A stretch of DNA of 64,000 bases from an uncultured delta proteobacterium (GCA_963820625.1 CAWGAV010000016.1:7047-71046); one strand, 5' to 3'. Numbered from the stretch's first letter, positions 45,345 through 51,278 are shown. A program made the numbers and translations. The notes: generated by a model from the letters alone, not told the origin.

Positions 45345-45389
45345 CTTTCTTCAAGAACTTCGTCTGGTATTCTATCTCTGGATATCATT
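45345..45389 (-). pseudogene. N-terminal remnant of the GntR-like gene
   Basis: ATGATATCCAGAGATAGAATACCAGACGAAGTTCTTGAAGAA nearly identical to the leader at 48226-48268. Confidence 0.6.
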
Positions 45390-45412
45390 CCTTTTGCCTA
45401 TCCATTCCATTC

Positions 45413-45604
45413 TCATCCTTCTGTTTTCTTCATTATTTTAGAATCGTATTTCCGAGCCTTATCCTTTCCTAAATTACCTTTAAAATATTCATTGAAACAA
45501 ACAGGACATATTAAATCCTCTCCTACAAACCGACCCAACTTATAAAAAAATGGATAATTTTTTAATTCCGCTCCACAATAATCACAGTAGATTTGGTTTG
45601 CCAT
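45413..45604 (-). CDS. Small CxxC...CxxC (putative zinc-binding) protein
   Basis: YCDYCG...ICPVCF; coupled to the upstream repeat ORF (TAAAATG). Confidence 0.65.
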   Translation of the reverse strand: MANQIYCDYCGAELKNYPFFYKLGRFVGEDLICPVCFNEYFKGNLGKDKARKYDSKIMKKTEG

Positions 45605-45605
45605 T

Positions 45606-45800
45606 TTACTTAGGTATTATCCCCTTTTCATTCTTTCTCTTCATCTCCCTATCCACCACCTTCACCATTTCAAGAAACTTTTCCTTGCTGAATATCCCCT
45701 TTACCACAAGTAGCCTGGTTAGTGCTTCTTGCTAAACTACCTGGGACATGAGGAGTTCTTCGAATGAAACGATTTGTTTGGGGTCAAGGGCGGTTGCCAT
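45606..45800 (-). pseudogene. MATALDPKQ unit, copy A (TAG at codon 23)
   Basis: GGAGG SD; MATALDPKQIVSFEELLMSQVV*QEALTRLLVVKGIFSKEKFLEMVKVVDREMK. Confidence 0.8.
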
Positions 45801-45821
45801 AGAAGCCTCCGAAAAGATCAT

Positions 45822-46859
45822 TTAGTTTGCTTTAAGAAATTTCAATAACTCCTTATGGAAGAGTTCCGGCGCTTCCAGATGAGGGATATGGCCAACGTCA
45901 GGCAATTCAATCAGGGAAGAGTTTGCTATCAGTTTTGCAGTCCTTCTGCCTAATTCCGGGTATTGCCCCACCAAAGAGAGCAGTTCTTTTTTCACTTTTG
46001 CTTTACCGACAACCGTTCTGTCGGATTGCCCAATGACCAGAAGGGTCTTTGACCTGATATATGGAAATTCATAGCAAACGGGTTGTTCGTAAATCATCTG
46101 GGATGTGAGTGCTGAAGACATGGCCAGCCTCGGGTATTCACCGCTTGCTTTCCACCTGAGAAAAACTTGAACATATTCTTCATAGTCAGGCTTCCATTTC
46201 ACATAGTAAGTTTTATGGTAATTCCGAATTCCTTCCTCTGTTGTGTTCAGTTCATTCCGATATGCTTCTTCAATAGGAGTATAGGGCACATATATTCTAT
46301 AGTCTTCCAGACCAATGGGATTCTCGAGGATCAGATGGCTAACCGTCTCAGGATACATGAGGGTAAATCTTGTTGACAGCATTCCTCCCATCGAGTGACC
46401 AACAACCGCAACTTGCGTTATTCCGAGGTTGTCCACAACTTTCTTGGTATTGATTGCTAATAAATGAAAACTATAATGGATATTCGGTTTTGACGATTTC
46501 CCGAAACCGATCTGGTCAGGGACAATCACTCTGAAGCCGTTTTGAGACAAGATATGGATAGTCTCTTTCCAGTAGGCTCCGAAGAAATTCTTTCCGTGTA
46601 AAAGTAATACGGCCATGCCATTTGGGGTTCCTTCAGGTAGTATGTCCATATAGGCCATTCTTAAGTCCTGACCCTCTATGGTAAGGGGAAGTAATTTTAC
46701 CGGGTAGGGATAGTCATAATTTTCCATTGATATGGATAGGGGTATCGTCTCTTGAGCAATTGTGGTGAAGGGCAGTGAGAAGATCCAAATCAATAAGCCG
46801 TAATTCAACATTTTCGTTGACAAACTGACAAAAGCCTGTGTGATACATTTCATGGTCAA
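45822..46859 (-). CDS. Secreted alpha/beta hydrolase
   Basis: LLHGKNF, PDQIGFGKS, GHSMGG, VGHIPH. Confidence 0.88.
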   Translation of the reverse strand: MTMKCITQAFVSLSTKMLNYGLLIWIFSLPFTTIAQETIPLSISMENYDYPYPVKLLPLTIEGQDLRMAYMDILPEGTPNGMAVLLLHGKNFFGAYWKETIHILSQNGFRVIVPDQIGFGKSSKPNIHYSFHLLAINTKKVVDNLGITQVAVVGHSMGGMLSTRFTLMYPETVSHLILENPIGLEDYRIYVPYTPIEEAYRNELNTTEEGIRNYHKTYYVKWKPDYEEYVQVFLRWKASGEYPRLAMSSALTSQMIYEQPVCYEFPYIRSKTLLVIGQSDRTVVGKAKVKKELLSLVGQYPELGRRTAKLIANSSLIELPDVGHIPHLEAPELFHKELLKFLKAN

Positions 46860-47000
46860 TCCCTTTCTTCAAAGCGCTTGATATGTACTAGAATTTTAAC
46901 CATTTGCTGTCTATGGGGTGAAAAAATTTTCATTTCGTTTCACCTCTTAATTCCTCTGTTCCGAGGAGTTATTCGTCCCGCCTGAAAGCCAGCCTCCTTT

Positions 47001-47534
47001 TCACTCATACTTCTCAAAGCAAACTATCTGATTCAGGCTCTTTCTGGATTTTTGCGATGGGGGTTGATTTGGATATCCCAACGGAGTCATGGCCACAACT
47101 CTAACATGTTCTGGAATGCTCAGAATTTTCTTGGTCTCATCCTCTTTAAAGGCGCCGATCCAACACGTTCCCAAACCCAGTTCATAAGCCTGTAGGATCA
47201 TAAACGCACAGGCAATGGATACATCCACCGTATAAGCGGGTTGACCACAGGCCATGATTGCCTTCGATTCCGTCCCGCAAGCAACAATGACGACAGGTGC
47301 TTCCCCGATAAAAGACTGTCCGAAGGCAGCCTTAGCCAGTTTCTTCTTTGTTTCCTTGTTCCTGACAACGATAAATTTCCATTCCTGGCGGTTGCTGGCA
47401 GAAGGGGAAAGTCTTACTGCCTCCAGTATCTTTTTTAGTTTATCCTCTTCGACATCAGTTGCTTTGTAAGCTCTCACACTGCTTCTTTGGCTAATGGCAG
47501 CAAAAACATCCATTTTTTGTTTCCTCCTTGTCAA
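47001..47534 (-). CDS. Nitroreductase family protein
   Basis: [39 protein letters not shown]. Confidence 0.92.
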
Positions 47535-49533: not shown

Positions 49534-49705
49534 CCTATAAAAATTTCTTTGTTACCCCCAATATGTTACCTGTTCAGCACTCTGCCCGTTTAGACCTCCG
49601 AGTGCTGAGCGTGGTCTTGCCAGTTCTTTGTATAGAGTTCAGCCAATTTCTTATCATGGATTACGAGGAGATTTTCAGCATTGTTATCCTCGGCAAGCAC
49701 AGGAA

Positions 49706-50311
49706 TTATGCCCGCTCTCTTTTTCTCCTGCTCATATACCCCAACCTGGCAGCTTTGCGACGGTTCTCGCCTTCGAAAACGAATTTGGACGGGGGGAGGT
49801 CAAACCCCTTTCTCCGATAGCGATCTCTGATCGACTGGAAATTGGCAATCCCTGTCATTCTGCCAATCCTTGACATGGAAATCGGCGTCTCCAAATAAAA
49901 CCGAAAGGCTTTTGAATACTTCTCTTTCTGGATGGTCGCAAATCTCTTCTCGACAAGACCCCCTTTTTTCAATTTACGCAGATGGTCTCCAAACCTCACC
50001 CTATCTCCCCCGATGTTGGGGTTTAACCCCACCAACCGCATAACCCTTTTTCTCGTAAGAAATTCAGATCGGACTTTCCTGCTAACCTCCATGATTTTTC
50101 CGCACAGATCACATGTGCCGACCTTGTGACCCGCAACTCTGAGAACGTAAGGAGTGGGCGGTCTTTTTATCCGGTACCTCTCTGTAAACTGATTGACCGC
50201 CTGCCTCGACACGCCGAAAATCCTCCCTATCTCCTCAAAGGACAGGGTGGTCTGCGACAAATACCTTATGACCTCTCTCTTGTGTCTTTTAAGTGCTCCC
50301 CGATTTCCCAT
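49706..50311 (-). CDS. Basic multi-HTH hypothetical protein with CxxC
   Basis: LSFEEIGRIFGVSRQAV HTH; CDLC; second HTH-like ISMSRIGRMTG. Confidence 0.6.
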   Translation of the reverse strand: MGNRGALKRHKREVIRYLSQTTLSFEEIGRIFGVSRQAVNQFTERYRIKRPPTPYVLRVAGHKVGTCDLCGKIMEVSRKVRSEFLTRKRVMRLVGLNPNIGGDRVRFGDHLRKLKKGGLVEKRFATIQKEKYSKAFRFYLETPISMSRIGRMTGIANFQSIRDRYRRKGFDLPPSKFVFEGENRRKAARLGYMSRRKRERA

Positions 50312-50398
50312 ACTTCCTTACTCCCCATGCACGATAGCTCAAGGATGCTCTCCACTTCCTCAGTAGCGTAATACTTGGCGTCGTTTCTAATTAAAAAC

Positions 50399-50674
50399 CT
50401 ATTTCTCCTTTACGAATGACCCTACTCCACGCTTTGAAATTATCAAACCATCCTTCTTCAGTTTGGAAAATGCGATGGCAACAGCCATTCTACTCACGTT
50501 GAACTTCTGGGCAATTTTTTCTTGTACCAACCTTTGCCCTTTCTTTACTTTGCCAGAAAGGATCATTTGTTTCAGGTGGGAATACACCTTTTCCGATACC
50601 TGATACCTGTTCAGCTTTTTGGGGAAGATTTCTTTAAGGACTTCATTGGGTATTCCATCTCTGGATTTCTTCAT
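50399..50674 (-). CDS. GntR-family winged-HTH-only regulator
   Basis: EKVYSHLKQMILSGKVKKGQRL, NVSRMAV, GVGSFV; no effector domain. Confidence 0.85.
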   Translation of the reverse strand: MKKSRDGIPNEVLKEIFPKKLNRYQVSEKVYSHLKQMILSGKVKKGQRLVQEKIAQKFNVSRMAVAIAFSKLKKDGLIISKRGVGSFVKEK

Positions 50675-50758
50675 TTGTTCCGCCCTGAACTTGTTAGCCC
50701 AAATCTACTACCGTTACTCCATTCCGACGGCTTCCTCTAATTTTTAAGCTTGGCTTTA

Positions 50759-51046
50759 CTAGGCATGCAAACATATTTTCACCTTCGTAGGCCTAGCCAT
50801 CAGTTTTTCCATTCTGACATGGATCTTACTCGTTTCTGGAACATTTTCATATTTTTCCCAGTCATCGACACTCTGCCATGTTGTGATCACAATATAATTT
50901 AGAGGGTCATCCCGGTCTCGAAGCATCTCACCTGAAATATAACCTTCCGAGAAAATTGCTTTCGATCTCAATTTCCTGAGGAGTTTAGCAAAATCCGCTT
51001 CCTTTCCTTTCTTTACCTTCCGATCGATAATGATCCTCACCGACAC
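50759..51046 (-). CDS. Antibiotic biosynthesis monooxygenase (ABM/dimeric alpha-beta barrel) protein
   Basis: GKEADF, GYISGEML, YIVITTWQSVDDW; GTG after GGAGG. Confidence 0.8.
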   Translation of the reverse strand: MSVRIIIDRKVKKGKEADFAKLLRKLRSKAIFSEGYISGEMLRDRDDPLNYIVITTWQSVDDWEKYENVPETSKIHVRMEKLMARPTKVKICLHA

Positions 51047-51074
51047 TGCCCTCCACCTCCTATAAGCTATTTTA

Positions 51075-51278
51075 TCATTCTTCAAACCCTTTTAAAACAA
51101 TACTTAACCATCCTCTTTTCATCTCCCGATCTTCCACCCTCACCATCTCCAAAAACTCCTCTTTGGTGAATATCCCTTACTCCACGAGTAGTCGGGTAAG
51201 GGCTTCCTGTTGAATCACCTGTGACATGAGAAGTTCTTCAAAGGAGACAACTTGTTTGGGGTCAAGGGCGGTTGCCAT
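51075..51278 (-). pseudogene. MATALDPKQ unit, copy E (TAA at codon 34)
   Basis: GGAGG SD; MATALDPKQVVSFEELLMSQVIQQEALTRLLVE*GIFTKEEFLEMVRVEDREMK. Confidence 0.8.

Follow-up and report, generated by a model that had tools for sequence, protein, structure and literature searches.

The window analysed here is a 64,000-nt stretch of DNA from an uncultured delta proteobacterium (GCA_963820625.1 CAWGAV010000016.1:7047-71046; positions are counted from its first letter), in which an array of small genes is punctuated by five broken copies of a short repeated unit, designated U. Our analysis indicates that the array is probably a decayed mosaic of one family of island modules, the U copies being recombination fossils and not parts of a new integron-like machine. 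The array sits in a variable island linked to the transfer-messenger RNA (tmRNA) gene that has lost its mobility genes. The genome that holds the window (G000; G, C and L numbers denote our genomes, contigs and loci) comprises 2.34 Mb and is about 71 % complete, the window's contig (C16) measures 101 kb, and a cross-genome survey covered about 80 related loci.

Re-reading of 45.3-51.3 kb confirmed an earlier note that had placed five U copies there, all on the minus strand and each with a separate lesion. Copies A (51114..51278) and E (45633..45800) span the full unit and are interrupted by in-frame stop codons, TAA at codon 34 in A (51179-51177) and TAG at codon 23 in E (45734-45732). Copy B (49072..49128) is limited to residues 1-19 and has ATT in place of the start codon, copy C (48518..48684) carries a 1-nt deletion at codon 8, and copy D (47588..47644) is an inner fragment comprising residues 20-38 only. 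The three long copies were recovered by tblastn with E values of 3e-30 to 6e-24, far beyond chance, and a repeat search grouped the window copies into families D1, D3 and D4 at 64-88 % identity. As noted previously, a 37-nt stretch that includes the GGAGG Shine-Dalgarno (SD) sequence is identical in A and E (ggaggcttctatggcaaccgcccttgaccccaaacaa), and the genes that follow copies A to E encode, in turn, an ABM-domain protein, a 111-aa membrane protein, a 57-aa Cys protein, a nitroreductase and a 63-aa Cys/TRASH-like protein. The TAAAATG stop/start overlap that had been assigned to copy A was misplaced; it sits at copy E (45608-45602), before the 63-aa gene. Also part of the repeated pattern are 3' fragments of a PLD-nuclease gene, at 51672-51840 and 49590-49700, together with three GntR-like copies. 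Two further U copies were found by tblastn elsewhere in the genome, both broken (C34:88187, residues 1-41; C1:6284, residues 24-57), and none of the seven is intact.

The U copy that follows an alpha/beta-hydrolase gene could be compared between relatives. It carries the TAG stop in G000, has lost its start and acquired a 7-codon deletion and a stop in G041, and is cut after codon 10 in G004; in G012 it is absent, and homology ends just past the hydrolase stop. Because this hydrolase-linked orthologue is broken in three ways in three relatives, the lesions are taken to be real and independent, and not sequencing artefacts. Copies B and D adjoin in codon numbering, B ending at 19 and D starting at 20, as though the intervening 1.4 kb had split one unit. 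A U that begins at codon 20 behind the 97-aa gene, the junction on the D side, is also present in L073, so the fit of B and D may be coincidental or reflect an older event.

U is a genuine small protein-coding gene (~58 aa) under purifying selection and not a cis element. In a codon-register alignment of 35 near-full copies from many genomes, conservation sets in ~10 nt before the ATG, at the SD sequence (GGAGG), and ends at the stop codon, with flanks at background level; within the gene, conservation per codon is ~0.9 at positions 1 and 2 and ~0.5 at position 3. The ratio of non-synonymous to synonymous divergence (dN/dS, Nei-Gojobori) is ~0.13 among intact copies. Copies A and E differ by a dN of 0.067 and a dS of 1.2 and are, as judged from this divergence, old paralogues maintained by selection until a recent inactivation. 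The earlier note had remarked that the DNA of the unit stays similar regardless of its lesions, which is explained by selection on the protein until recently. It had also suggested a check for conserved RNA structure; RNAalifold applied to 20 copies gave a consensus of -2.9 kcal/mol with no meaningful covariation, and such a structure was rejected.

The absence of a named family for the unit was borne out, as no Pfam, NCBIfam, PHROG or PADLOC model represents U. A protein search recovered 2381 clusters (90 % identity) of 57-75-residue homologues, all annotated 'hypothetical' but for a JGI label of 'YqgQ', and a profile search of 1.8 billion representatives gave 3236 matches at the 50 % clustering level, including many odd-length fusions and truncations. 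The YqgQ name was set aside as a source label only, since no YqgQ/DUF910 Pfam match appeared at E <= 0.1, and a phage or plasmid origin was rejected with 0 matches in 50,697 phage and 72,556 plasmid records; 2.9 million viral contigs yielded six weak matches. The AlphaFold2 model predicts a two-helix hairpin (residues 13-33 and 39-57, pLDDT 85), for which the Protein Data Bank held no sequence or fold match above threshold; the top Foldseek match was SCNase, at E 2.4. Pfam NHase_alpha aligned through model positions 5-45 at a sub-threshold E of 0.004, and the NCBIfam scan returned just nitrile_alph (E 0.033, far below the cut-off) with no NHLP match. U shares, below threshold, an LL(V/I)EKG(I/L)(F/I)T.EE motif and a helix-turn-helix shape with the N-terminal alpha hairpin of nitrile hydratase and thiocyanate hydrolase and with NHLP leaders. 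Unlike the latter, it matches another part of the nitrile hydratase alpha subunit than the one NHLP leaders resemble, and unlike NHLP and Nif11 leaders it has neither a Gly-Gly site nor a core peptide, its C-terminus being a conserved basic tail without GG. Membership of the NHLP leaders or of the nitrile hydratases was rejected, the matches being motif-level and sub-threshold, and they are kept as a resemblance.

In the survey, U was present in 22 of 41 relatives, often in multiple copies (17 in G004 and 13 in G041), and in 56 further loci of public metagenome-assembled genomes, mostly of peat/soil Thermodesulfobacteriota or Syntrophaceae. Many short contigs end at U, as expected of a repeat. 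In related loci U is multicopy and its neighbours change, in support of the earlier note's interpretation. A same-strand open reading frame (ORF) begins 0-60 nt beyond nearly every copy and comes from a recurring pool, hereafter cargo, which includes a cold-shock protein (Csp), five lipoprotein families, Cys4 mini-proteins, a DnaJ-like membrane protein, helix-turn-helix (HTH) proteins, ABM proteins and nitroreductase. A Pfam scan of cargo representatives returned Adhesin_E, DUF169 or nothing. In distant lineages, belonging to other families of the same class, U was seen as a single intact copy beside response-regulator genes: a homologue lies directly before an OmpR-type response regulator in L019 and L021 and overlaps the end of a receiver-domain gene in L022.

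Mosaic joints fall at U. Comparison of the window array with other loci by blastn produced a mosaic of matches: the hydrolase gene plus copy E matches L059 at 93-97 %, with another gene downstream, the 3' part of copy E plus the 63-aa gene (Zn63) matches L052 at 87 %, and copy A plus the ABM gene matches L050. The pair formed by p109 and copy A matches L051, L056 and L057 at 74-87 %, and the genes downstream of it are four different ones in these three loci and the window. The pair formed by p119 and copy B matches L087 at 80.6 % over 566 nt and stops at 49070, where B is cut, and the 97-aa gene plus copy D matches L073 at 79.5 % over 376 nt. Amongst 134 locus pairs with a common flank beside U, the flank is shared upstream only in 60, downstream only in 72 and on both sides in just 2. 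The contigs L114 and L112 are 97 % identical to codon 41 of a U copy and unrelated beyond it. Nucleotide-level mapping of 117 U places showed scattered break points, with 5'-truncated copies beginning at codons 4-46 and 3'-truncated copies stopping at codons 21-48 and no dominant site; 5'-truncated copies were the more frequent (69 versus 24). Codon 33/34 stands out slightly, and an inherited junction present in several loci, HTH188-U(34)-Zn63, contributes to this small peak. This scatter argues against a site-specific crossover and fits homologous exchange combined with untidy deletions. Thus, the earlier proposal that the unit is a recombination joint holds insofar as homology blocks end at or inside it, whereas the proposed cis-acting capture or leader module does not: U is a coding gene, its flanks are not conserved, no RNA structure was found, its ends fall at no fixed position and no recombinase is present on the window's 101-kb contig. 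The alternative offered in the same note, repeated insertions of one element family, is the best fit amongst its readings.

A nuclease gene, a variable gene X and U recur as a linked set. PLD fragments are found upstream of U with one gene between, forming the window triads PLD-p109-U_A and PLD-p119-U_B. On contig C34 of G000 the arrangement is PLD-246aa-U, in L112 methyltransferase-PLD-140aa-U-Csp and in L038 DnaJ/PLD-Zn69-U; the same PLD-X-U order occurs in L053, L055, L057, L087, L096, L106 and L114. An SNase-type nuclease takes the PLD position in L046, L088 and contig C1 of G000, and both types have signal-peptide-like N-termini by inspection. Nuclease remnants lie upstream at all three U loci of G000. 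Overall, the 2 kb upstream of 121 U places contained a PLD, SNase or HD gene in the same orientation at 31 of them, mostly separated from U by a single gene. All seven relatives with a close PLD homologue are amongst the ten with a close U (hypergeometric p ~5e-6). In a sister subfamily (MAEKLDPKE...LINLLDRKGI), the U domain is fused to different partners, standing before at least two distinct C-terminal domains and, in other proteins, after DUF6794, and three fusion genes that were looked up abut or overlap a PLD, an SNase and an HD gene, respectively. We infer that U works with the products of its neighbours, and the fusions and the constant nuclease partner suggest that it may be a regulator or partner of the nuclease module. 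The fold of one fusion partner was modelled with mediocre confidence (pLDDT 69), and its PepSY-like hints (E ~0.3-0.5) were not used. One of the three fusion genes is placed between a BREX and a ubiquitin-like (Bub) cluster; in L125 (JGI 3300037225 contig, 1-9800), PLD and U-fusion genes lie between a BREX cluster, with BrxC/PglY and a PglX-like methyltransferase, and a BubE/ThiF/Multi_ubiq cluster, which represents a defence-island setting.

U and PLD decay preferentially whilst cargo is kept. Of the 105 U places scored, 33 % have an intact copy, and amongst PLD places the share is 18 %; it is 80-100 % for most structural cargo families and 33-67 % for several other families, including HTH genes. 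In the window array, every U and nuclease copy is broken and the cargo ORFs are still open, and the U family has presumably lost its function in this lineage.

The variable island that holds the array (41858..54004) begins exactly at the 3' end of the tmRNA gene (54005..54360, minus strand; ARAGORN; Rfam RF00023, 233 bits), as homology to G004 breaks off sharply at 54005 and restarts at ~41858. A housekeeping gene of G000 is 91 % identical to that of G004 and 88 % identical to that of G041, yet at this site the island content shows no similarity between the window and these relatives but for one PLD fragment. At the same tmRNA site, G004 carries a different insert of 9.4 kb (L115, G004:C9 3869-13226) and G041 about 55 kb; the best matches of the array pieces are instead spread over many contigs and loci of G004, G012 and G041. 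The 9.4-kb element of G004 encodes a DUF3854 protein, a large terminase (TerL) and a tyrosine integrase, and resembles a phage satellite. Within the window island, 36 nt at 52347..52382 (minus strand) are 100 % identical to the 3' part of the intact tRNA-Glu of L090; ARAGORN found no whole tRNA there, and this tRNA-Glu(CTC) 3' half is likely an integration scar. It lies between a flavin-reductase gene and the array, and related fragments occur at a contig end, once more on contig C10 of G000 and several times in relatives. Seven tyrosine-recombinase and six Y1-transposase places were counted across G000, none of them on the window's contig, where the tyrosine recombinase model PF00589 had no match. 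Elsewhere, a Phage_integrase gene adjoins tRNA-Ala at the end of the L064 array, and U loci contain 3.4 tRNA genes per 100 kb compared to 1.15 genome-wide.

These features liken the island to additive tRNA/tmRNA islands such as the tycheposon islands of Prochlorococcus, in which successive integrations and decay scatter remnants through the island (bioRxiv 10.1101/2020.12.28.424599). Shared traits are the start exactly at the tmRNA 3' end, content that differs wholly between relatives, a partial tRNA inside the island, an integrase-bearing element at the same site in a relative and remnants of older elements pushed inward. Unlike tycheposon islands, the island in the window is punctuated by a small coding gene and a nuclease 3' end instead of partial tRNAs and has no surviving integrase or att repeat, and most U arrays of relatives are without a tRNA within the sequence examined.

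Taken together, we propose that in one clade of Syntrophales-like Thermodesulfobacteriota U would belong to the backbone of a module present in multiple copies, with the order small secreted nuclease (PLD/Nuc-like or SNase), variable X, U and variable cargo Y, often followed by a GntR-type or other HTH gene. These modules lie in variable regions; several adjoin a tRNA or tmRNA gene, and a tyrosine integrase accompanies some. Recombination between modules would proceed by homologous exchange and untidy deletions, with joints at the nuclease 3' end and at U because these are the sole conserved sequences in otherwise unrelated gene strings; X and Y would be reassorted and partial U and nuclease copies left behind, with selection retaining the cargo plus its translation start. 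The window would show a dead example, in which 12 kb of island sequence at the tmRNA 3' end contain what is left of two triads and of three more U copies. Variable slots between conserved genes are familiar from capsule and O-antigen loci and from the defence hotspots of phages and satellites. In the same manner, the PLD 3' end and U bracket a differing X (amongst others p109, p119, Zn69 and the 246-aa gene), the pattern expected of exchange through flanking homology, but unlike in those slots the U and PLD anchors are tiny, present in multiple copies per genome and often truncated themselves.

Several observations weigh against this interpretation. A nuclease is detectable upstream of only about a quarter of U places, the enrichment of tRNA genes at U loci is modest, and homology offers no more for U function than a weak sub-threshold likeness to the N-terminal hairpin of the nitrile/thiocyanate hydratase alpha subunit. 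In the window, neither an integrase nor clear element borders remain, and the tmRNA 3' end was not found duplicated as an attR; repeated insertion in the window is deduced from relatives. Conservation of both flanks is also rare for control genes from these arrays, and shuffling may be general and most visible at U as the best-conserved word. Additionally, the loci were collected because they contain U, an ascertainment bias, and the contrast in intactness is somewhat inflated as fragments of fast-evolving cargo are harder to detect than those of U.

Amongst the alternatives, the one closest to an integron treats U as a protein-coding counterpart of attC, with the whole unit or a site in it used for attachment by a dedicated recombinase that captures gene cassettes and changes their order. 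Integron cassettes are each followed by an attC site, an imperfect inverted repeat with R''/L''...L'/R' boxes. U arrays resemble integron cassette arrays and clusters of attC sites lacking integron-integrases (CALINs) in that co-oriented, tightly packed, unrelated small genes are split by one recurring element, with no integrase nearby, as in CALINs; the joints at U, the tyrosine integrase family at the end of several arrays and the abutting ends of copies B and D at codons 19 and 20 would also be accounted for. In integrons the recurring element is non-coding and forms a conserved folded single strand. U, by contrast, is translated and under purifying selection, no attC-like inverted repeats were recognized in it, no sequence is conserved beyond its ORF, and the break points are spread instead of falling at a fixed or dominant site. 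The contig carries no recombinase, including an IntI-type tyrosine recombinase such as a complete integron has along with attI (no PF00589 match on C16), and the integrases that were observed adjoin tRNA genes in the way of ordinary island integrases. Two pattern scans combining R''/R' boxes with folding, a repeat search and searches for short inverted repeats found no attC within 44-53 kb and no inverted-repeat or attC-like structure in or between units, though the scans are unvalidated and also found nothing in a putative CALIN at 17.8-19.9 kb, which makes this a weak negative. We consider a site-specific cassette system distinctly improbable. The recombinase-associated acquired interbacterial defence clusters (rAID-1) of Bacteroidales are a further point of comparison, comprising long co-directional arrays of small, diverse genes with non-coding intergenic repeats and a tyrosine recombinase at the 5' end (bioRxiv 10.1101/471110). 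Characteristic of them are an XerD-like recombinase and cargo homologous to known immunity genes. U arrays are likewise co-directional with small, diverse genes, many encoding lipoproteins or small secreted proteins, but their repeat is a gene, the taxon differs and no recombinase is present in the window. No immunity-protein family was recognized in the cargo using Pfam only, by which weak relatives could be missed.

It is unlikely, given the same data, that U is a translated leader or coupling gene that drives or regulates whichever gene comes next. Such a role would suit the ORF that begins 0-60 nt after almost every copy, with overlaps such as TAAAATG and ATGA, the excess of 5'-truncated copies that retain their 3' end beside cargo and the unusual conservation of the 5' 37 nt including the SD sequence. 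However, cargo ORFs are open behind dead and fragmentary copies, all 58 residues are under strong amino-acid selection, unlike typical leader peptides, and U also occurs as a folded domain joined to the N- or C-terminal end of other proteins and is tied to the upstream nuclease as well. Programmed variation, in which one intact U would mark an expression site and 5'-truncated U-gene units would be silent cassettes moved by gene conversion, is modelled on loci such as pilE/pilS and mycoplasma vsa. Many 5'-truncated copies do precede an intact gene, often for a lipoprotein, some genomes have about one intact copy among many fragments (G041), and U identity tends to drop away from the shared flank in a small sample. 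Against this, the packing of the arrays resembles that of ordinary co-transcribed genes and leaves no space for individual promoters, cargo as varied as Csp, ABM, nitroreductase and HTH proteins does not form one antigen family, and G000 has no intact U; we judge the model very unlikely. Finally, the clustering of five co-oriented copies within 6 kb, together with repeated GntR and PLD pieces, might be explained by tandem duplication in this genome followed by decay. The dS of ~1.2 between A and E marks old paralogues, each copy with its neighbour is closest to a different locus of another genome and the flanks of the window copies are unrelated, leaving local debris with hardly any credibility.

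The U family and the nuclease-X-U habit appear to be undescribed, there being no model for them in Pfam, NCBIfam, PHROGs or PADLOC. Beyond the interpretation of the window as a decayed mosaic, it is conceivable, if rather doubtful, that nuclease-X-U constitutes an undescribed mobile multicopy system of anaerobic soil/peat Thermodesulfobacteriota whose conserved U and nuclease coding sequences double as anchors for the exchange of X and downstream cargo between islands. If this is true, the small secreted nuclease and the U hairpin protein would act with a hypervariable middle protein, for example in defence or competition, and the system would be one of cassette exchange with genes as 'attachment sites'. 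A working triad would represent a new kind of module for variable islands of poorly studied anaerobes and an example of conserved genes as exchange anchors; if the triad is not a system, U fragments still matter for annotation, as they confuse gene callers and break assemblies. The decayed window island is itself ordinary, and its interest is that it points to a large unnamed family of small proteins that is always found in gene strings, tied to small secreted nucleases of unrelated folds across a variable gene, often fused to other domains and a point of reassortment for neighbouring genes.

The remaining genes of the array all lie on the minus strand. An ORF at 51672..52046 is chimeric, joining an SNF2/DrmD-like N-terminus (PADLOC DrmD, 3.7e-5, residues 4-64) to the last ~55 residues of a PLD/Nuc-like nuclease (PLDc_2, 3.5e-9, residues 58-111). 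The latter part corresponds to PLD residues 127-181 by tblastn and represents the nuclease remnant of triad 1, and the ORF as a whole looks like a deletion scar. The PADLOC defence libraries had no match for U, p109, p119 or the cargo and matched this chimeric ORF alone, weakly, to DrmD/DrmC. The variable middle gene of triad 1, p109 (51307..51636), has no Pfam, PHROG or PADLOC match and also occurs beside U in L051, L056, L057 and L065. In triad 2, the nuclease is reduced to a 3' fragment at 49590..49700 (repeat D6; PLD residues 142-179 by tblastn) that is 75 % identical to 51697-51795, and the middle gene, p119 (49174..49533), has no family match.

The ABM-domain gene after copy A is listed at 50759..51085 (Pfam ABM, 9.5e-12), and its junction with U recurs in L050 and L065. 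The listed TTG start falls inside the tail of copy A, and the true start is probably a GTG at ~51046 behind AGGAGGTGGAGG (AGGAGG). A 201-aa HTH protein (49706..50311; Pfam HTH_28, 7e-7) is a recurrent array component, with relatives after U in L052, L056, L060 and L093. Three GntR-type HTH-only genes are present, encoding 91 aa (50399..50674; Pfam GntR, 1.7e-16; repeats D2 and D5), 77 aa (48001..48234; 5.6e-16; repeat D2) and an N-terminal fragment (45333..45393; repeat D5). Each lies two genes downstream of a U copy, and the same U-gene-GntR order was seen in L108 and L014.

The other cargo genes encode the 111-aa membrane protein (48704..49039), the 57-aa Cys4 zinc-ribbon-like protein (48313..48486), which follows U in five other loci too, a 97-aa secreted protein (47671..47964), the nitroreductase (47001..47534; Pfam, 5.6e-33) and the alpha/beta hydrolase (45822..46859), whose orthologues in G004, G012 and G041 each have a different downstream state. 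The 63-aa Cys/TRASH-like gene, Zn63 (45413..45604), matches Pfam Arc_trans_TRASH at 1.1e-5, just below the cut-off, and is also found behind a 3' fragment of U in L052. In L105 (G041:C3 6578-8056), the orthologous alpha/beta-hydrolase gene is split by a 1.6-kb insertion with a 492-aa transposase-like ORF. Next to the array, a 23-nt motif, GGTGTCATCCATAAAAAAGTTGG, is located at 45276-45298 (minus strand), ~35 nt upstream of the start of a DsbA-like gene. It occurs at six places in G000 with 0-3 mismatches, the others being C5:35284, C28:26916, C28:33558, C16:95261 and C16:96594, and exact cores of 18-26 nt recur in L066, L101, L103 and L053; the motif may be a promoter, an operator or a small repeat.

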